NCBI GenBank assembly: GCA_016177805.1
Contig: JACOUN010000036.1
Location: 1 to 28,118, forward strand
Length of the DNA: 28,118 nucleotides
Origin: Rhodocyclales bacterium
Lineage (GTDB): Bacteria; Pseudomonadota; Gammaproteobacteria; Burkholderiales; Rhodocyclaceae
Direction of reading: 5' to 3'
Below are positions 1,531 to 27,861 of the stretch, in pieces. Below the pieces are notes generated by a model, which saw nothing but the letters and a program-made list of their open reading frames with translations, ran no database searches and was not told the origin of the DNA. Each line of letters starts with the position of its first letter. Within the stretch, counting starts at the first letter, position 1. The position numbers and the translations under genes were made by a program.

Positions 1531-2634
1531 TTAGATAACGCCGGGAGGAATGCAAAAGCTGGTTTGCGATTGGCATGATGACGATGGTTGCCCGGAGGCG
1601 GCAGGGTTCGCGGCAATCCGATGACCCTGTGCCGTCTTGGTCGTCTCGAAGCGCAGCGGCAGAAACCGCTGCACCACCTCCATGTTGGTTTCGAGGTGCG
1701 ATGACAGCGTGGCGGTGGTCAGGCTGCCGCCGCGCGCGAGCGCCAGCGGCAGCACCAGTTGATCGGCCAGGTGCTCGCCGACCGCGGCATCCGAGGCGCG
1801 GTCGGCGCGGGCGGCCTTGATCACGCGCGCGGCGACGGCTTCGGCGGGCAGGCCGCGTTCGCCGAAGGCGACGAACACTTCGGTCACTTCGCTGTGCTGG
1901 TCGACCAGCAGCAACGCGTTGCCTGGTCCTTCGCGAGCGGGCAGGACGCGCAGTTCAACTTCGGCACCCAGCGCGGCGGCTTCCACCATGGTCAGTTCGC
2001 GCCTGGCGACATCCACCGGCACGCCCGCGACCACGGCCACGGCGCGCGCCTGCAGCGGCGTGCCGCGCTCGCACAGATGCAGGGTCTTCAGCGCCGCGAC
2101 CGGGGTGACGCGCGCGCGGATCTCGCCCCCGCCGGCCGGGTAGAAGCCGTGGCGCAGCAGTTCGATGTCCATGTCCACCCCCATGCGGCGCATCAGCGGT
2201 AGCCAGGCGTGGATCAGGAAGTCGGCGGGCGGGGCGGCCGGGTTGTGCGTGCCGCCGCTGACCGTCACCGTGCTCGGCGCGTCGGCAAACCACAGCGCGG
2301 GGAGGATGGTTTGCAGCACCAGGGTGCAGCTACCGGCGCTGCCGATGGCGTGGCGATAGTCGCCGCCACGGATGCGTCCGGGCACGAAGTGCAGTGAGCG
2401 CGAGCCCAGCGCCGCGCCATCCACCCGCGCGCCGCAGATCTGCGCGGCGGCCTGCACGGCGGTCAGGTGCTGGCGCAGCAGCCCCGGTTTGGCGCGGCGG
2501 GCGCGGATGTGGTCGAGGCGCAGCGGCGTGCCGGTGATCATCGACAGCGTCAACGCGGTGCGCAGTATCTGCCCGCCGCCTTCGCCTTGTGAGCCGTCGA
2601 GCGTCACGGTGTCGAGCGTACAGGTGTCAGGCAT
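1531..2634 (-). CDS. rtcA: RNA 3'-terminal phosphate cyclase RtcA, with about 25 extra C-terminal residues compared with E. coli.
   Basis: LDGSQGEGGGQILRTALTLSMITG, RAKPGLLRQHLT and FAIGSAGSCTLVLQTILPALWFA match my recollection of E. coli RtcA closely. The ATG at 2634 overlaps the upstream gene's stop by 8 nt. Confidence 0.95.
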   Translation of the reverse strand: MPDTCTLDTVTLDGSQGEGGGQILRTALTLSMITGTPLRLDHIRARRAKPGLLRQHLTAVQAAAQICGARVDGAALGSRSLHFVPGRIRGGDYRHAIGSAGSCTLVLQTILPALWFADAPSTVTVSGGTHNPAAPPADFLIHAWLPLMRRMGVDMDIELLRHGFYPAGGGEIRARVTPVAALKTLHLCERGTPLQARAVAVVAGVPVDVARRELTMVEAAALGAEVELRVLPAREGPGNALLLVDQHSEVTEVFVAFGERGLPAEAVAARVIKAARADRASDAAVGEHLADQLVLPLALARGGSLTTATLSSHLETNMEVVQRFLPLRFETTKTAQGHRIAANPAASGQPSSSCQSQTSFCIPPGVI

Positions 2635-3445
2635 GGGAGTCTCCGGTCATGACGGTCTGGAGCAGGAAACGGTCGAGCGCCTCCGTGTCGCCTTGCGGCG
2701 TGCGGTAGGAAACGTCGCGGTCGACCTGCGCCAGCATGCCTTCTATGTAGGCGTGGATGGCAGGCCAGCGCGGCCCGTGCTCGGCTTCGCCGACGCGCAT
2801 CTTGACCGCCAGCAGGCGGTTGATTTCGTCGCGCAGGGTTTCGTCACTGATGGTTGCTTGCGCGAGTTCGGCGAAGCGCATCGGCGGCATGCTCCGGTAT
2901 TCGTCGATCCATTGCACCGCCAGCAGCGGGCGCAGCACGTACAGGTACTTTTTCAGACGCACCGTATCGCCCCGCAGATAGCCTTGAAAGTTCTTCTTGG
3001 CCATGGCGAGGTAGTGGTAGCGGCCGCGCATGGGCGAGAAGAACTGCGCCGCCAGCGCGCGCAGGCCGGCGGCGGCATCGGAGCGTTCGCGATAGATCAC
3101 CGGCGAGTCCAGCCATTCGAGCAGGGTCGGGTTGGAGCGGCGCAGCAGGCGCAGCGCCTTGCGCAGCTCCCAGCCGCTGACGTCCAGTTCGTCGCTGATC
3201 GGCAGTTCGATGACGTCGCGCTGCGCTTCGACGCGCAAATACCACGGCATGCGTGGCACGTAGACGAAGCGCACATCGTAGTCGCTGTCGGGCGAGGCGA
3301 AGCCCCAGCCCCGGCTCCCCGACTCGCAGGCGAACAGCACCCGCACCTCGTGGCGGGCCTCGATCTCGTCCAGCGCCTGCATCACGCGCTGGCGTACCGC
3401 CGGGTCTATCGGGTGGGCGGTGAGTATTGTGTTGCTTGTTTGCAT
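2627..3445 (-). CDS. Pol-beta-superfamily nucleotidyltransferase (272 aa); a predicted RNA-repair-associated NTase.
   Basis: The GS-x9-DxD minimal NTase signature is present in CESGSRGWGFASPDSDYDVRFVY. The gene sits between rtcB and rtcA in the same orientation. Its stop overlaps the rtcA start (ATGCCTGA), which suggests translational coupling. Confidence 0.85.
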   Translation of the reverse strand: MQTSNTILTAHPIDPAVRQRVMQALDEIEARHEVRVLFACESGSRGWGFASPDSDYDVRFVYVPRMPWYLRVEAQRDVIELPISDELDVSGWELRKALRLLRRSNPTLLEWLDSPVIYRERSDAAAGLRALAAQFFSPMRGRYHYLAMAKKNFQGYLRGDTVRLKKYLYVLRPLLAVQWIDEYRSMPPMRFAELAQATISDETLRDEINRLLAVKMRVGEAEHGPRWPAIHAYIEGMLAQVDRDVSYRTPQGDTEALDRFLLQTVMTGDSHA

Positions 3446-3482: not shown

Positions 3483-4724
3483 TCATCCTTTCACACACAC
3501 CACCTGACGCAGGGTGTGCACCACTTCCACCAGCTCGCGCTGGGCGTGCATCACCGCGTCGATGTCCTTGTAGGCCATCGGGATTTCGTCGATCACGTCG
3601 CTGTCCTTGCGGCATTCGACGTGGGCGGTGGCGCGCATCTGGTCTTCGATGGTGTAGCGGCGCTTGGCCTCGTTGCGGCTCATCGCGCGGCCGGCGCCGT
3701 GGCTGCAGGAGCAGAAGGCCGCTTCGTTGCCGAGGCCGCGCACGATGTAGCTGCGCGCGCCCATCGAGCCGGGGATGATCCCGAGTTCCCCTTTCTGCGC
3801 CGACACCGCGCCCTTGCGCGTGACCAGCACCTCCTGCCCGTAGTGGCGCTCGCGCTGCACGTAGTTGTGGTGGCAGTTCACCGCTTCCACGTCGGCGGTG
3901 AACGGCTTGGCGATCACCTGGCGCGCGGCGGTCACGACGTTCTGCATCATGGCCTGGCGGTTGCGCCGGGCGTAGTCCTGCGCCCAGCCGACGGCGGCGA
4001 CGTAGTCGTCGAAGTGCGTGCTGCCTTCCTCGAAGTAGGCCAGATCGCGGTGCGGCAAATCGGCGAGGTGCTGGCGCATGTCGGCCTGCGCCAGTTCGAT
4101 AAACACATTGCCGATCGCGTTGCCCACCCCGCGTGAGCCCGAGTGCAGCATGAACCACACCCGGTCGGCCTCGTCCAGGCACACTTCGATGAAGTGGTTG
4201 CCGGTTCCCAGCGTTCCAAGGTGCTTGTAGTTGTTGGTGTTCTTCAGGCGCGGGTATTTCTCGGTGATGCGCGCGAAGCCCGGCTGGAGTGCCTTCCACA
4301 GCGCGTCGACGTTGTCCGGCGGGTTCTCCCACGCGCCCTTGTCGCGGCCGCCGCGTGTCATCGTGCGGCCATGCGGCACGGCGCGTTCGATGGCGTCGCG
4401 CAGTCCGCCGAGCTGGTCCGGCAGATCGCGCGCGAGCAGGGTGGTGCGCGCGGCCATCATGCCGCAGCCGATGTCCACCCCGACGGCGGCCGGAATGATG
4501 GCGCCGACGGTCGGGATCACGCTGCCTATGGTCGAGCCCTTGCCCAGGTGTACGTCCGGCATCACCGCCAGATGGCGGAAGATGAACGGCATCCTGGCGG
4601 TGTTCATGAGCTGCGCGCGCGCTTCGGCTTCAACCGGCACGCCTTGCGTCCACATCCGGATCGGCGCGCCGTTGATCACCTCCAGCAGTTCGGAGGTCGT
4701 GGTGGTGTTGATGTTCGTTTCCAT
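3483..4724 (-). CDS. rtcB: RNA-splicing ligase RtcB (3'-phosphate/5'-OH ligase).
   Basis: Near-colinear identity with E. coli RtcB as I recall it: MWTQGVPVEAEARAQL, MPDVHLGKGSTIGSVIPT, CSCSHGAGR, PMAYKDIDAVM...VVCVKG. It is 413 aa. Confidence 0.97.
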   Translation of the reverse strand: METNINTTTTSELLEVINGAPIRMWTQGVPVEAEARAQLMNTARMPFIFRHLAVMPDVHLGKGSTIGSVIPTVGAIIPAAVGVDIGCGMMAARTTLLARDLPDQLGGLRDAIERAVPHGRTMTRGGRDKGAWENPPDNVDALWKALQPGFARITEKYPRLKNTNNYKHLGTLGTGNHFIEVCLDEADRVWFMLHSGSRGVGNAIGNVFIELAQADMRQHLADLPHRDLAYFEEGSTHFDDYVAAVGWAQDYARRNRQAMMQNVVTAARQVIAKPFTADVEAVNCHHNYVQRERHYGQEVLVTRKGAVSAQKGELGIIPGSMGARSYIVRGLGNEAAFCSCSHGAGRAMSRNEAKRRYTIEDQMRATAHVECRKDSDVIDEIPMAYKDIDAVMHAQRELVEVVHTLRQVVCVKG

Positions 4725-4755: not shown

Positions 4756-5895
4756 TCAGTTGCCCTTGAGTGTGACCAGGCCGTTCAGCACCTGATCCAG
4801 CCCGCCGAACACCGAGATCCGGTCGATCCGCTCCGCCACGCGCTCCAGCGTTTCCAGTTCCTTCAGGCGCAGCGCGGTCGGGTTGTCTTCCATGACCCGC
4901 GCGGTGTTGAGCAGCGAGCGGGTGGCCGAGGTTTCTTCGCGCCGGCGGATGACGTTGGCCTGGGCGGCCTTCTCCGCCTCGACCACCTGCGCGAGTATGG
5001 TGCGCATCTCGCCCGGCAGCACGATGTCCTTGACGCCGAGACTGCGGATCTCGATGCCGAATCCGGCCAGCCGCGTCACCGCGTACTCGCTCACCACCTC
5101 GTCGATGACGCGCTTGTTCTCCAGTAGTTCGTCGAGCGAACGGGTGCCCACCGCCGCGCGCAGCCCGAACTGCAGTTCGCGGTAGAGGTGTTCGACCGGT
5201 TTGGCGAGTTTCTCGCACGCCAGCAACACGTCGGCGTAACGCCAGGTCACGCCCAGGTTGATGCGCAGCGCGACCTTGTCGCGGGTCAGGATTTCCTGGC
5301 CGCTCACTTCCATGTTCTGCAGGCGCGTGTCCACCAGTTCGACCGAGATCTCGCGGTTGAAGCGCCAGTACGCCTCGATGCCGGGGTTCAGCATGCGTTC
5401 CATCCTGCCGTCCATCCTCACTATGCCGACATGGTAAGCCGGAACCTGCGCCAGCAGCACCGCGCCCAGGCCGGCCACCGGCCGGCCGCGCAGGCCGGGC
5501 TGGGTCAGGCGCATCGTCAGCGCGGCCGGCAGGGCGACCGTCTGGCGCAGATCGACCTTCTCCAGCCGGTGCGCGAGCACGCCCTTCCAGATCATGCGCC
5601 GGGTACCCGGCGGCAGGATTTCCACCAGCACGTCATTCTCGTAGCGCAGTCCCGCCTCGTCTTCGGACAGATCCATGATCTCGAAGCAGGATTCGACCAG
5701 ACGGGGTTCGCGGGCACGCAGATACTCACCCAGTTCGACATCGGTGAGCGCCGTGTCGATGCGCCATACCTGCACGCTCAGGCGGTTCATCGGGTCCCAG
5801 AAATAGTGGCGCCCGGCGCTCAGGAGGCGCACGAAATCCCCGTCCTTGAGCAAGGCGGCCTGTTCGTATTTCTTCACCACAAATCTCTTGATCAT
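4756..5895 (-). CDS. SPFH/band-7 (stomatin/flotillin-like) domain protein; first gene of the sigma54-driven rtc operon.
   Basis: The central SPFH core reads LRINLGVTWRY...GIEIRSLGVKDIVLPGEMRTILAQVVEAEKAAQANVIRRREETSATRSL, followed by a coiled-coil-like tail. I prefer the start at ATG 5895 (MIKRFVV), which has a GGAGAA SD 6 nt upstream. The ATG at 5913 lacks an SD. The gene ends 31 bp before rtcB. Confidence 0.88.
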   Translation of the reverse strand: MIKRFVVKKYEQAALLKDGDFVRLLSAGRHYFWDPMNRLSVQVWRIDTALTDVELGEYLRAREPRLVESCFEIMDLSEDEAGLRYENDVLVEILPPGTRRMIWKGVLAHRLEKVDLRQTVALPAALTMRLTQPGLRGRPVAGLGAVLLAQVPAYHVGIVRMDGRMERMLNPGIEAYWRFNREISVELVDTRLQNMEVSGQEILTRDKVALRINLGVTWRYADVLLACEKLAKPVEHLYRELQFGLRAAVGTRSLDELLENKRVIDEVVSEYAVTRLAGFGIEIRSLGVKDIVLPGEMRTILAQVVEAEKAAQANVIRRREETSATRSLLNTARVMEDNPTALRLKELETLERVAERIDRISVFGGLDQVLNGLVTLKGN

Positions 5896-6152
5896 GCTGT
5901 TCTCCAGTTTCATTCATGCGTTGCGTGAGCCGGTCAGCGCCGGCCCGGACGGACGCTTTGCGCGACACACCCAGGGAGGCGGGCGGTGAGCGCTGGGGGG
6001 AGCCACAAACGCGCTGCCCTCCCAGGCTCGCCGCCCGCCTTGCCGCGTGCGCGGCGCAGGGGTCGGTCCGGGCCGGCGACGGGGGCTTGCGCCCACCGCG
6101 ACCGGCGGTTGCTGCTTGACTGCGATGCTTCAGTCGTCTTTTGAGGACGATT

Positions 6153-6216
6153 TGGAGCGGGACTCGAACCCGCAACACGTTGCATATGCAACCGCTCTAC
6201 CCATTGAGCTATCCAG
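6153..6216 (-). ncRNA. tRNA-like element A (64 nt): canonical D-arm and T-arm, with shortened acceptor and anticodon-equivalent arms.
   Basis: Minus-sense sequence: CTGGA TA GCTC AATGGGT AGAGC G GTTGC-ATAT-GCAAC GTGTT GCGGG TTCGAGT CCCGC TCCA. The D-loop keeps the GG pair, and the T-loop TTCGAGT matches T-psi-C-G-A. The anticodon region is a 5-bp palindromic hairpin with a 4-nt loop, so no 7-nt anticodon loop exists. The acceptor helix is only 4-5 bp. It therefore cannot be a functional tRNA. Confidence 0.6.
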
Positions 6217-6265
6217 TGGTGTGCGATCCGGGAATCGAACCCGGATTTCTCAACCATGTCCGCAC
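6217..6265 (-). ncRNA. tRNA-like element B (49 nt): an acceptor/T-arm minihelix ending in an encoded ACCA, immediately 5' of element A.
   Basis: Minus-sense sequence: GTGCGGA CATGGTTGAGAAAT CCGGG TTCGATT CCCGG ATCGCAC A CCA. It has a perfect 5-bp T-stem, a TTCGATT loop and a 6-of-7 acceptor helix. The discriminator and CCA are encoded. It has no D or anticodon arms. Confidence 0.55.
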
Positions 6266-6393
6266 CATGACCGTGTCCTGCTGCCGCGGCATGCGCCAGA
6301 GCCAACGGGATTATTTCCGGGCCAGGCGCACCAGTGGGGCGGATGAACCCCGGCTCGTCGGCGTTGCAGCACTACAGCGGTCGAGCTACCCAT

Positions 6394-6410
6394 AGCGATA
6401 GGCGTGCCAG
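6394..6410 (-). promoter_or_regulatory. Sigma54 (RpoN) -24/-12 promoter for the tRNA-like/SPFH/rtcB/NTase/rtcA operon, divergent from rtcR.
   Basis: Minus-sense CTGGCAC-GCCTA-TCGCT. GG and GC are spaced exactly as in the TGGCAC-N5-TTGCW consensus. It sits 137 bp upstream of the rtcR start, as expected for an RtcR/sigma54 target. Confidence 0.6.
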
Positions 6411-6546: not shown

Positions 6547-8139
6547 ATGAAGAAGACGGTGGTGATCGGTTTTCTCGGGACTCAGCTCGACTACTCGGGG
6601 AATGGGGCCAAGCGGTGGGAGAGGTGGCGCCCCACCGTCAGCCTGTGCCAGCACGACGATCTGCTGGTGAGCCGGCTGGAACTGCTGCACGATGCACGTC
6701 GCCGGGGGTTGGCCGAGCGCGTCGCGCTCGACATCGCCAGCGTTTCACCGGAAACGCAAGTGCGCCGGGTTGAAACCGCGATCCGCGACCCGTGGGATTT
6801 CGAGGAGGTGTACACCGCGCTGCACGACTACGCGCGCGGCTACCCGTTCGACGTGGATAACGAGGACTACCTGATCCACATCACCACCGGCACCCACGTG
6901 GCGCAGATCTGCTGGTTCCTGCTGGCCGAGGCGCATTACCTGCCGGCACGGCTGCTGCAGACCTCGCCGCCACGCAAGCAGGCGCCGGCCGATTCGGTGG
7001 GCAGCTACACCCTGATCGATCTGGATCTGTCGCGTTACAACAAGATCGCGCAACGCTTCAGGCGTGAAGCCGAAGAAACCGTGACCCAGCTCAAGTCCGG
7101 CATCGCCACGCGCAACGCGCGCTTCAACGACATGATTGCGCAGATCGAGCACGTCGCCGGGCGCTCCTCCGCGCCGATGCTGCTCATCGGCCCGACCGGG
7201 GCGGGCAAGTCGTTTCTGGCCCGGCGCATCTTTGAGCTGAAGGTGCAGCGTCAGCGTTTCGCGGGTCGCTTCGTCGAAATCAACTGCGCCACGTTGCGCG
7301 GCGATTCAGCCATGTCGGCGCTGTTCGGTCACGTCAAGGGGGCGTTCACCGGGGCGCAGAGCGAGCGGCCGGGGTTGTTGCGTTCGGCGCATCAGGGGTT
7401 GCTGTTTCTCGATGAAATCGGGGAATTGGGCCTGGATGAGCAGGCCATGCTGCTCAAGGCGGTCGAGGAGAAACGCTTCTTCCCGTTCGGCGGCGACCGC
7501 GAGGTGGATAGCGACTTCCAGCTCATCGCCGGAACCCACCGCGATCTGCGGCAATGGGTGGCCGAAGGCCGTTTTCGCGAAGACCTCTACGCCCGCATCA
7601 ATCTGTGGACCTTCGATCTGCCGGGGTTGGCGGCGCGGCGCGAAGACATCGAACCGAACATCGATTTTGAACTGCGCCGCTATGCCGAAGCCGAAAACCA
7701 GCAGGTGCGCTTCAACGTCGAAGCGCGTCAGGCTTACTTGCGCTTCTGCAGCTCTGCCGAAGCGCGCTGGCCCGGCAATTTCCGCGAGCTGTCCGCGTCG
7801 ATCACGCGCCTGGCGACGCTAAGCGATGCGGGGCGCATCACCGTCGAGCATGTGCACGAGGAGATCGCCCGCCTGCGCCGCAGTTGGGGGGGGGATGAGT
7901 CCGGGGGCGGAGTGCTGAGCGCATTGCTGGGTGAGCGTGCGGAACAGATCGATCTGTTCGATCGCGCCCAGTTGTCCGCCGTGATCGCGGTGTGCCAGGC
8001 GTCGAACAGCCTGTCCGACGCCGGGCGCAAGCTGTTCGCGGTGTCACGTCAGGGAAAGAAGCAGCCCAACGACGCGGACCGGCTGCGCAAGTATCTGGCG
8101 CGATTCGGTCTGGATTGGGCTGCGCTCAGCGGCGCTTGA
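6547..8139 (+). CDS. rtcR: RtcR: a sigma54-dependent transcriptional activator with an N-terminal CARF domain, a AAA+ sigma54-interaction domain and a C-terminal HTH.
   Basis: The N-terminus (MKKTVVIGFLGTQLDYSGNGAKRWERWRPT...IASVSPETQV...PWDFEEVY...YLIHITTGTHVAQICWFLLAEA) matches my recollection of E. coli RtcR. Walker A GPTGAGKS and an ESELFGH-like SALFGH motif are present. Confidence 0.95.
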   Translation: MKKTVVIGFLGTQLDYSGNGAKRWERWRPTVSLCQHDDLLVSRLELLHDARRRGLAERVALDIASVSPETQVRRVETAIRDPWDFEEVYTALHDYARGYPFDVDNEDYLIHITTGTHVAQICWFLLAEAHYLPARLLQTSPPRKQAPADSVGSYTLIDLDLSRYNKIAQRFRREAEETVTQLKSGIATRNARFNDMIAQIEHVAGRSSAPMLLIGPTGAGKSFLARRIFELKVQRQRFAGRFVEINCATLRGDSAMSALFGHVKGAFTGAQSERPGLLRSAHQGLLFLDEIGELGLDEQAMLLKAVEEKRFFPFGGDREVDSDFQLIAGTHRDLRQWVAEGRFREDLYARINLWTFDLPGLAARREDIEPNIDFELRRYAEAENQQVRFNVEARQAYLRFCSSAEARWPGNFRELSASITRLATLSDAGRITVEHVHEEIARLRRSWGGDESGGGVLSALLGERAEQIDLFDRAQLSAVIAVCQASNSLSDAGRKLFAVSRQGKKQPNDADRLRKYLARFGLDWAALSGA

Positions 8140-26775: not shown

Positions 26776-27081
26776 CGATGCGGGACGAAACGCCATTGCG
26801 GCCGACCATCCGACCGCGATGGCCCCCGACCCGTGAATCAGTCACGGTGTTGACGGACGCCAGCCTTCCCGGAATGGCGGTAGCAGACGGCTCGTCGAGC
26901 GCCTGAGGACGCACGCTGCGCAATGGGCTGCCCAAGACGTGCACAGGAACACACCGAACATGACATCGCCCATCGCCCGGCAACGGCCTGGCGTACCCAA
27001 CCCCTACAGCGGCGTAGCGCCGAAGCGCCAGCGCAGCGCTCCGATCACGCTTCAGATGGCGCCGAGCGGCTGCCTTCAGGT

Positions 27082-27861
27082 ATGTTGAATAAGCTCCGCG
27101 CGCAGTTTCCCCGGCTCGAAGGGCCGCTCCTTACGGGCCTGAGTCCGTTCACCCTACGCGGTGAGGTGATCGGATGGATCGTCCGGATCGGGCGGCAAGG
27201 CATCTTGTTTCAGCGGGATTTCTGGGCCTCGACCCATTGCGGCATGGAGGCGGCTTTTCGCGCCGCGTCCGCCTACCGGGATGAGGTCGATCGGGACTAC
27301 CCCCGGCTGTCGAGCGCCGAGCGATGCACGACGCTGCGCGCCAACAATACCAGCGGGATCCCAGGGGTAAGCCGGCAGATGGTGGAAGGCAGGCCGTACT
27401 GGGTGGCGGAAGTGGGCGTTCGGGGATACAAGAAGGCGCGCCGCTTCTCCATCCGCAAGTATGGCGACGAGCGTGCCCGGAATCTGGCGATCGAGGCCCG
27501 CCGCGCGCTCCTCGCGCACGTGCAAACCCTGCAAGAGCGTCGGGCCGAGCGGTCCCCACTTGAATCTGCGCAGCCCGAAAACCTGCCCCTGGCGCGGGCC
27601 GCGCTGCGCGGCTTTCCGTGGCCGAATCCCCATGTGCATCGTGCCAGTGGTGTTCTGGGTGTGCGGCTCATGCGCGCCGAACACGTGCGCAAGGACGGAA
27701 CGGTGTCGGTTGCCGAACACTGGATGGCCTCGATGAAGGTTGCCGAGCGGACCTATCGCGCCTGTTTCTCCGTGAAACGCTTCGGCAACGAAGAGGCCAT
27801 GCGTCTGGCGATCGAGCAGCGCAGGGCATGGGAGGCCGAGTACAGAAAACCCCGACGCTGA
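27082..27861 (+). CDS. Protein with three tandem AP2 (Apetala-2/ERF-like) DNA-binding domains, about 259 aa.
   Basis: Three repeats of the AP2 pattern are present. Two examples are SGIPGVSRQMVEGRPYWVAEVGVRGYKKARRFSIRKYGDERARNLAIEARRAL and SGVLGVRLMRAEHV...WMASMKVAERTYRACFSVKRFGNEEAMRLAIEQRRAWE. The first repeat contains GWIVRIGRQGILFQRDFW...EAAFRAASAYRDE. An alternative upstream start at 26923 exists. Confidence 0.65.
   Translation: MLNKLRAQFPRLEGPLLTGLSPFTLRGEVIGWIVRIGRQGILFQRDFWASTHCGMEAAFRAASAYRDEVDRDYPRLSSAERCTTLRANNTSGIPGVSRQMVEGRPYWVAEVGVRGYKKARRFSIRKYGDERARNLAIEARRALLAHVQTLQERRAERSPLESAQPENLPLARAALRGFPWPNPHVHRASGVLGVRLMRAEHVRKDGTVSVAEHWMASMKVAERTYRACFSVKRFGNEEAMRLAIEQRRAWEAEYRKPRR

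Follow-up and report, generated by a model that had tools for sequence, protein, structure and literature searches.

Tandem tRNA-like elements in the structured leader of an SPFH-RtcB-RlaP-RtcA operon from a Rhodocyclales bacterium

The locus and its two tRNA-like elements

The stretch of DNA analysed here, called the window, comprises 28,118 nucleotides (nt) of the Rhodocyclales bacterium assembly GCA_016177805.1 (contig JACOUN010000036.1, positions 1 to 28,118, forward strand). It contains, within an RNA repair gene cluster, two adjoining elements that resemble transfer RNA (tRNA), termed B (6217..6265) and A (6153..6216), both on the minus strand, with A starting at the base directly after the CCA of B. 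Judged by comparative sequence evidence, A and B are genuine, conserved, non-decoding tRNA mimics, neither decoding tRNAs nor relics of an attachment (att) site, and the pair is the middle module of a conserved, structured leader RNA with a predicted length of about 480 nt. On one side of the leader, and divergent from it, lies rtcR (6547-8139, plus strand), encoding a sigma54-dependent activator with an RtcR/CARF N-terminal domain (Pfam RtcR 8e-87, Sigma54_activat 1e-48). On the other side, all on the minus strand, the first gene encodes an SPFH/band-7 protein (slipin; 4756-5895, Pfam Band_7 3e-25) and is followed by the genes for the RtcB ligase (3483-4724, Pfam RtcB 1e-128), the RlaP nucleotidyltransferase (2627-3445, Pfam RlaP 6e-96) and the RtcA cyclase (1531-2634, Pfam RTC 3e-83). 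This is the gene order proposed by an earlier reading made from the letters alone (the sequence-only reading), whose coordinates for the two tandem elements are likewise correct to the base. The open reading frame (ORF) of the SPFH protein is listed from ATG 5913; ATG 5895, as the same reading had it, is the likelier start, since a GGAGAA ribosome-binding site precedes it and alignments with homologues begin at residue 7 of the 5913 ORF.

Element B is a reduced tRNA mimic. Its 5' acceptor strand GUGCGGA (6265-6259) is followed by a 14-nt connector, CA-UGGU-UG plus AGAAAU (6258-6245), a perfect T-arm CCGGG-UUCGAUU-CCCGG (6244-6228), the 3' acceptor strand AUCGCAC (6227-6221), the discriminator A6220 and an encoded CCA (6219-6217); there is no anticodon arm in the sequence. 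The minimum-energy fold of B alone is the proposed structure, in which the T and acceptor stems stack into a continuous minihelix of 12 base pairs (bp; 5+7) with a free ACCA end. Element A is a cloverleaf. It consists of the 5' acceptor strand (C)UGGA (6216-6212), the dinucleotide UA, a D-arm GCUC-AAUGGGUA-GAGC (6209-6194), an anticodon-like arm GUUGC-AUAU-GCAAC with a 5-bp stem and a 4-nt loop (6192-6179), the sequence GUGUU, a T-arm GCGGG-UUCGAGU-CCCGC (6173-6157) and the 3' acceptor strand UCCA (6156-6153). In the window its acceptor stem is 4 bp long (UGGA/UCCA), no CCA is encoded after it, and its minimum-energy fold, again of the element alone, is a cloverleaf with this 4-bp stem. Each element thus folds as the sequence-only reading expected. 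The stability z-scores of the two elements folded alone are weak (-1.45 and -1.70), and the comparative data are therefore the real evidence for them.

The Rfam tRNA model matches element A at 6153-6215 (minus strand) with 40.8 bits against a gathering score of 29 (E 1.5e-5 in the window); the match spans model positions 4-67, so that A was matched without its outer acceptor pairs. Orthologues of A score 44-57 bits on the same model. In a plain MAFFT alignment of 46 orthologues, fitted to no structure, all five pairs of the anticodon stem covary and 99% of the cells are paired; three of five pairs of the T stem covary, and the D stem does not vary. Of the acceptor pairs only the inner four or five have been retained: pair 1 is open in 38 and pair 2 in 25 of the 46 orthologues. 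For B the MAFFT alignment was out of register, and sequences of the same length were used instead to seed a covariance model (eight orthologues, with only the acceptor and T stems specified). This model matches the window at 6220-6265 (minus strand) with 40.1 bits (E 3e-7, 566 kb searched), finds a single match per locus in 35 loci, and does not match the genuine tRNA genes present elsewhere in the loci (upstream arrays). In the resulting alignment changes on both sides are seen in 7/7 acceptor pairs, although pair 7 is open in most sequences. Pairing holds in 93% of cells, compared with 25-61% when the partner strand is slid, and none of 500 shuffles reached the observed score. The 3' strand of B covaries with B's own 5' strand and not with the 5' strand of A. 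The connector is 10-24 nt long in relatives, contains GG in 44 of 45 non-Pseudomonas loci, and commonly forms a 2-3 bp hairpin with the GG in its loop. A minor correction to the description of B as a minihelix with no D or anticodon arms is thus that its connector has some features of its own. The alignment of orthologues, which had been set beforehand as the test that could refute the proposal, was strongly positive for both conservation and covariation.

Element A scores above the gathering threshold of the canonical tRNA family (RF00005) and has textbook D and T arms; it differs from a canonical tRNA in its 4-bp acceptor stem, its 4-nt anticodon loop, the lack of a conserved anticodon and the lack of CCA, while B lacks two of the arms. 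Put in terms of what a decoding tRNA needs, A is without the 7-bp acceptor, the 7-nt loop and the CCA, and B has the proper end but no anticodon arm. The loop of A is 7 nt long in 27 loci, 6 in 23, 4 in 7, 5 in 5, 8 in one and 15 in one. Its anticodon is not conserved among orthologues, to which ARAGORN assigns the identities Val, Ile, Met, Thr, Leu, Arg, Ser, Phe and others, or else anticodons of 2 or 4 nt, which are impossible. The variable "anticodon" and loop length, together with the acceptor stem of A, shortened to 4-6 bp, indicate mimics rather than decoding tRNAs, as the sequence-only reading had held. The pattern of change shows that selection has kept the acceptor/T minihelix of B, often with N-CCA at its end, and the D/T elbow of A with its invariant D-arm and T-loop, i.e. 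the parts that proteins recognise by shape, and that it has let go of the 7-bp acceptor stem, the 7-nt anticodon loop and a fixed anticodon. ARAGORN, run over the window, called neither A nor B and no transfer-messenger RNA (tmRNA). Across the leader regions of the sampled loci (L001-L080) the same program calls most of the mimics as tRNA genes with arbitrary anticodons; among the tRNA gene sets of proteobacteria, such calls are probably a widespread artefact of annotation.

The leader RNA and its occurrence among relatives

Upstream of the elements lies a sigma54-type box, TGGCACGCCTATCGC (TGGCAC-N5-TCGC; 6395..6409, minus strand; a pattern match with one mismatch to the consensus), which occupies the same position in 19/19 aligned close leaders and bears out the sigma54 promoter claimed earlier. 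Transcription is predicted to start near 6383. Between the elements and the SPFH gene the minus strand showed no intrinsic terminator, and this, with the conserved box, was counted in favour of co-transcription of the mimics with the operon. The elements are not the first part to be transcribed, as had been supposed, since a conserved structured domain of about 80 nt precedes B. A single MAFFT alignment proved unreliable for folding the whole leader, and GC-rich CCGG repeats overwhelmed a naive scan of column pairs; the domains were therefore analysed separately. All coordinates in the leader refer to the minus strand. The 5' domain (6285..6363), between the sigma54 box and B, is predicted by RNAalifold to be a three-helix junction and ends in a conserved AUGCCGC. 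Its helices are P1 (CGC 6363-6361 with GCG 6287-6285), P2 (hairpin 6355-6333) and P3 (6332-6321 with 6301-6288, bearing an apical hairpin on top). Compensatory changes occur in 17/24 of its pairs (37 sequences, four clades); pairing holds in 94.9% of cells, slid partners give 38-56%, and 0/500 shuffles reach the score. The domain is also retained in loci without rtcR or a sigma54 box.

Directly after A follows a small hairpin, UCGUC-CUCAAAA-GACGA (6134..6150), which is present in all clades with a covarying stem (CUGUC/GACAG, CUGCC/GGCAG, UCGUC/GACGA), and then a conserved single-stranded motif (6107..6115) that reads GCAGCAACC in the window and GCAGUACCC in most relatives (GCAGYAACC/GCAGUACCC). 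The motif is conserved in leaders of Rhodocyclales, Burkholderia and Pseudomonas, and is kept where the mimics have been lost. The multi-helix 3' domain (5929..6106, about 180 nt) ends about 25 nt before the ribosome-binding site of the SPFH gene. It is predicted to contain an outer helix (6106-6101 with 5934-5929), a GNRA hairpin with the loop GCAA (6098-6080), a long helix (6078-6068 with 5948-5938) and an inner GC-rich helix, the inverted repeat 5977-6041. Compensatory changes are found in 37/45 pairs (RNAalifold, 28 sequences), and the long helix, of 11 bp, was found independently by a column-pair scan, with 9 covarying pairs. The 5' and 3' domains matched no Rfam family, apart from chance microRNA matches to the GC-rich inverted repeat. 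A long-range pairing of AUGCCGC with GCGGCA of the 3' domain was considered and rejected, the GCGG being better explained by a local covarying hairpin. Taken over all its parts, the comparison shows that a conserved structured RNA, tRNA-shaped by its predicted folds, is encoded in what appears to be the transcribed leader of the repair operon.

The SPFH protein family has more than 7000 relatives in the databases. The sample used here consisted of 80 loci from reference genomes of Rhodocyclales, Burkholderia, other Burkholderiales and Pseudomonas, 78 of them with upstream sequence, in which tRNA-like units were counted by a T-arm pattern search with inspection of the exceptions. About 70 of the 78 loci have two units, 68-77 nt apart and 270-390 nt upstream of the SPFH gene, about six have one, and two, both from P. 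entomophila (L077, L079), have none. The usual layout is rtcR, about 650 nt, then the SPFH gene, and the Band_7/RtcB/RlaP/RTC/RtcR context is repeated in at least 60 loci. Pseudomonas loci have a full cloverleaf as their first unit, which adjoins the second with a gap of 0-1 nt and no CCA; outside Pseudomonas the first unit is the reduced B form. A Chitinimonas locus (L035) has a lone T-arm unit without a D-arm. The flanking domains stay in loci with one or no mimic while the module number varies between 0, 1 and 2, and the mimics thus act like a changeable insert within an RNA that is otherwise more constant. One whole clade has kept the mimics and the leader with no rtcR nearby.

Eight loci of the Roseateles, Aquabacterium, Rubrivivax and Ottowia type (L062, L063, L064, L069, L072, L073, L078 and L080) lack rtcR upstream; in its place (at about 250-1900) they have same-strand arrays of up to nine normal-looking tRNA genes. 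In L080 at least, an ORF for an HNH endonuclease (1843-2499) lies between the array and the leader. In these loci the same cassette seems to stand in a mobile or phage-like setting; a search of viral contigs gave one match only for the SPFH gene and was uninformative. The spacer between the SPFH and RtcB genes is 31 nt in the window and about 300 nt in some loci. In L002 (4142-4439) it contains a third T-arm followed by CACGUCC-G-CCA, with a complementary GGGCGUG about 200 nt upstream, a pairing that resembles the split acceptor stem of tmRNA; Rfam tmRNA matches there are weak (17 bits). The T-arm sequence of this spacer recurs in L009 (near 4391), L011 (near 4582), L015 (near 4353) and L049 (near 2954).

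AlphaFold models of the SPFH protein show no N-terminal membrane helix and a beta-rich N-terminal region of 150 amino acids before the SPFH domain. Modelled alone, residues 1-150 (5446-5895) form two beta-rich repeats with a helix after each (predicted local distance difference test score about 81). By Foldseek the SPFH part matches stomatin and HflK/C; the N-terminal 150 residues alone had no significant match in the PDB, only short weak matches to the beta part of SPFH domains. A vault-like architecture was suggested by the full-length model, which aligned end to end only with the major vault protein. The N-terminal region alone gave no vault match, which reduces the idea to a generic similarity to SPFH-shoulder domains. 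Downstream of rtcA, 84 nt away on the same strand, an ORF of 318 amino acids without a Pfam match (491-1447) may be a fifth gene of the operon. Sampled neighbours in the rest of the window code for an ABC transporter, a phosphoesterase, a glycosyltransferase, AMP-binding enzymes and an ammonium transporter, and neither an integrase nor a transposase turned up among them. An ORF with an AP2 domain, a domain frequent in phage or mobile-element proteins, lies at 26923-27861 (plus strand), about 20 kb from the leader, and nothing ties it to the tRNA-like elements.

Relation to known tRNA-like RNAs

According to Wang et al. (2018), Burroughs and Aravind (NAR 2016) predicted a band-7-associated tRNA-like RNA (b7a-tRNA) adjoining band-7 and RtcB genes, with a strong likeness to authentic tRNA, likened in function to YrlA, proposed as the counterpart of Y RNA for SPFH, and not validated. 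The sequence-only reading had pointed to this prediction, correctly according to Wang et al., and its two elements correspond to the RNA in question. Element A fits the description as given there, and the gene context is identical: the elements adjoin a band-7/SPFH gene in an RtcB repair cluster (Pfam), and the tRNA resemblance of A is seen in its Rfam score and its covariation-backed cloverleaf. Rfam holds no family for b7a-tRNA. The core finding is accordingly the known 2016 prediction, confirmed and better described, and not a new kind of RNA. The tandem units, the reduced form B, the variable copy number and the covarying flanks appear to be new, with an uncertain overlap with the 2016 paper, which is represented here by the later account of it. 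The P. aeruginosa orthologue of the mimic, PA4581.1, is annotated as tRNA-Arg4. It is located between rtcR and PA4582, is without CCA and carries an unusual base in the D-loop (2026, PMC13637947). By quantitative reverse-transcription PCR it was present at about half the level of a normal tRNA, with or without induction of Rtc (PMC13637947).

YrlA (RF02553) shares with the elements a non-decoding, tRNA-like module with conserved T and D arms and an association with RtcR-controlled rtcBA operons. It is defined by a permuted order of T-arm, acceptor-like stem-loop and D-arm, and by a closing Rsr-binding stem with the motif GNCGAAN0-1G (Chen et al. 2014, PMC4201824). In M. smegmatis it is cut by RNase P and gains CCA, the cleavage being tied to a 7-bp stem (PMC4201824); some YrlA RNAs thus provide a precedent for processing. 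YrlA is a single circularly permuted unit, closed by the Rsr-binding stem and adjoining rsr, whereas the leader described here has two units of ordinary order with an acceptor helix apiece, in an operon without rsr. The tRNA-like domain of tmRNA resembles B in having an acceptor stem, a T-arm, a remnant of the D-region that contains GG, a CCA end and no anticodon arm. However, B has neither the mRNA-like reading frame nor the pseudoknots of tmRNA, nor the G3:U70 alanine identity pair (G-C in the window), and Rfam gave no tmRNA match above the gathering score in the window and none at E<=10 in the leader. The mascRNA at the 3' end of MALAT1 is likewise a tRNA-like fold inside a longer transcript, with a shortened anticodon arm and no decoding; RNase P and RNase Z recognise it, after which CCA is added. 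It is eukaryotic and lies at the 3' end of a long non-coding RNA, so that the likeness would be one of function only.

Proposed role, alternatives and significance

The reading preferred here, with a probability of roughly 0.6, is that A and B are mimics in a leader of about 480 nt transcribed from the RtcR/sigma54 promoter together with SPFH, RtcB, RlaP and RtcA, and that they act, probably after processing, as a tRNA-shaped RNA partner of these proteins, which we infer to be their most likely role. The leader would supply the tRNA-shaped RNA as a scaffold, adaptor or decoy, and the partners may be either proteins encoded in the operon itself or enzymes and toxins directed at tRNA. Enzymes of tRNA processing probably recognise the mimics as well. 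RNase P would cut 5' of B, a cut at the B/A junction would expose the CCA of B, and the leader would thereby be split into discrete RNAs. Such cleavage fits the geometry of B and the abutment of its CCA on A. The structural prerequisites for RNase P, the CCA-adding enzyme and TruB appear to be present, namely the predicted 12-bp minihelix with ACCA in B and the UUCGA T-loop in both elements.

Several observations weigh against this reading. Two P. entomophila loci have the SPFH gene, the 5' domain and the 3' motifs without a mimic, and three Pseudomonas loci (L040, L045, L068) have a single cloverleaf only; the mimics are thus not indispensable to SPFH, and the idea that they are its obligatory partner is weakened. 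A CCA after B is present in 20 of the 45 loci outside Pseudomonas, and the 19 Pseudomonas loci have none. The short 4-bp acceptor stem of A is a poor determinant for RNase P (cf. Chen et al.). The z-scores, from -0.5 to -1.7, are not significant, and stability was dropped as evidence. The structure search recognised no RNA-binding fold in the N-terminal domain of the SPFH protein. Finally, the level of PA4581.1, which does not depend on Rtc induction, is more in keeping with an RNA that is stable or transcribed separately than with a leader strictly dependent on sigma54.

Three alternatives concern the nature of the elements. It is highly improbable that they are spare tRNA genes in working order (e.g. 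tRNA-Arg), charged and translating under stress. In many genomes A does have a 7-nt loop and an ARAGORN tRNA call, and PA4581.1 is annotated as tRNA-Arg4 and expressed; but the "anticodon" differs between close relatives, the outer acceptor pairs are lost, A has no encoded CCA, and in the window the 4-nt loop and 4-bp acceptor of A and the missing anticodon arm of B go with the absence of an ARAGORN call for either. That A and B together form a Y RNA of the YrlA type, with the T-arm of B, the middle stem-loop and the D-arm of A as a permuted domain binding Ro/Rsr, is scarcely credible. Weak Rfam YrlA matches, of 20.2 bits in the window (E 0.14, partial model 30-81) and 29.1 bits in L015, do run from the T-arm of B into the D-arm of A, yet both scores are far below the gathering score of 69, the 3' strand of B pairs with its own 5' strand by covariation and not with that of A, no rsr/TROVE gene was matched in the operon (Pfam), and no GNCGAA motif was seen on reading the leader sequence. 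The permuted reading was rejected on its sub-threshold score and the self-covarying acceptor of B, and the likeness to YrlA drawn by the sequence-only reading is superficial, the topology being another one. The notion of functionless, decayed tRNA pseudogenes or att-site remnants of an integrating element draws on the truncated acceptor stems and odd anticodon loop, which resemble decay, and on the AP2-domain ORF about 20 kb away. Against it stand the elements' constant place relative to SPFH in about 70 genomes, which belong to several families and two classes, the compensatory changes seen in four helices, the SPFH gene on one viral contig only, and the lack of integrases, transposases or mobile DNA among the sampled neighbours, where the sequence-only reading had looked for a refutation. 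By covariation and synteny it is effectively refuted.

Two further alternatives accept the mimics and differ on what they do. They may, although this is rather unlikely, be mainly cis-acting processing signals for RNase P and 3'-end enzymes, like MALAT1/mascRNA or mitochondrial tRNA punctuation, with the 5' domain freed as a small RNA, the 3' domain becoming the 5' end of the mRNA and the mimics left as by-products. B is an ideal minihelix substrate with its CCA abutting the first nucleotide of A, the Pseudomonas units abut with 0-1 nt between them, the flanking domains are invariant at a module number of 0-2, and both cutting by RNase P and the addition of CCA have their precedent in YrlA. 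The D-arm and anticodon stem of A, however, are maintained by covariation, which a pure cleavage signal would not need; P. entomophila manages without any module, and the short acceptor stem of A would make a weak signal for RNase P. More improbable is a feedback device for RtcR, in which damage and repair of the mimics would create and remove tRNA fragments with 2',3'-cyclic phosphates that activate the CARF domain. RtcR does become active in response to damaged tRNA fragments (Hughes et al. 2020, PMC7790460), and the mimics adjoin rtcR in most loci; but the clade without rtcR nearby has kept both mimics and leader, the anticodon loops are not conserved and so could not be targeted by a specific anticodon nuclease, and the Salmonella nuclease did not produce YrlA fragments (PMC7790460).

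Beyond the proposed partnership of the mimics with the operon's proteins, it is conceivable, and put forward tentatively, that the whole leader of about 480 nt is the functional unit, an undescribed large RNA with a slot for 0-2 modules that forms the RNA component of an SPFH ribonucleoprotein. If so, the leader would consist of a 5' three-helix junction, a slot for exchangeable tRNA mimics and a 3' domain of about 180 nt. SPFH proteins are a cage- or ring-forming family, and a ribonucleoprotein on a soluble SPFH protein would present tRNA-shaped handles to RtcB, RlaP and RtcA. In annotation, mimics that tRNA finders call as real tRNAs would inflate or distort the tRNA gene sets of many proteobacteria. 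To our knowledge the b7a-tRNA prediction has stood for a decade without validation. Exact boundaries, a covariation-backed structure and natural variants (0, 1 or 2 modules; with or without CCA) are now available for it, and P. aeruginosa (PA4581.1) and Burkholderia are tractable hosts for direct testing. The substrates and cofactors of RtcB/RtcA repair in bacteria are poorly defined, and a tRNA-shaped RNA made together with the repair proteins would offer a handle on how they recognise their targets.

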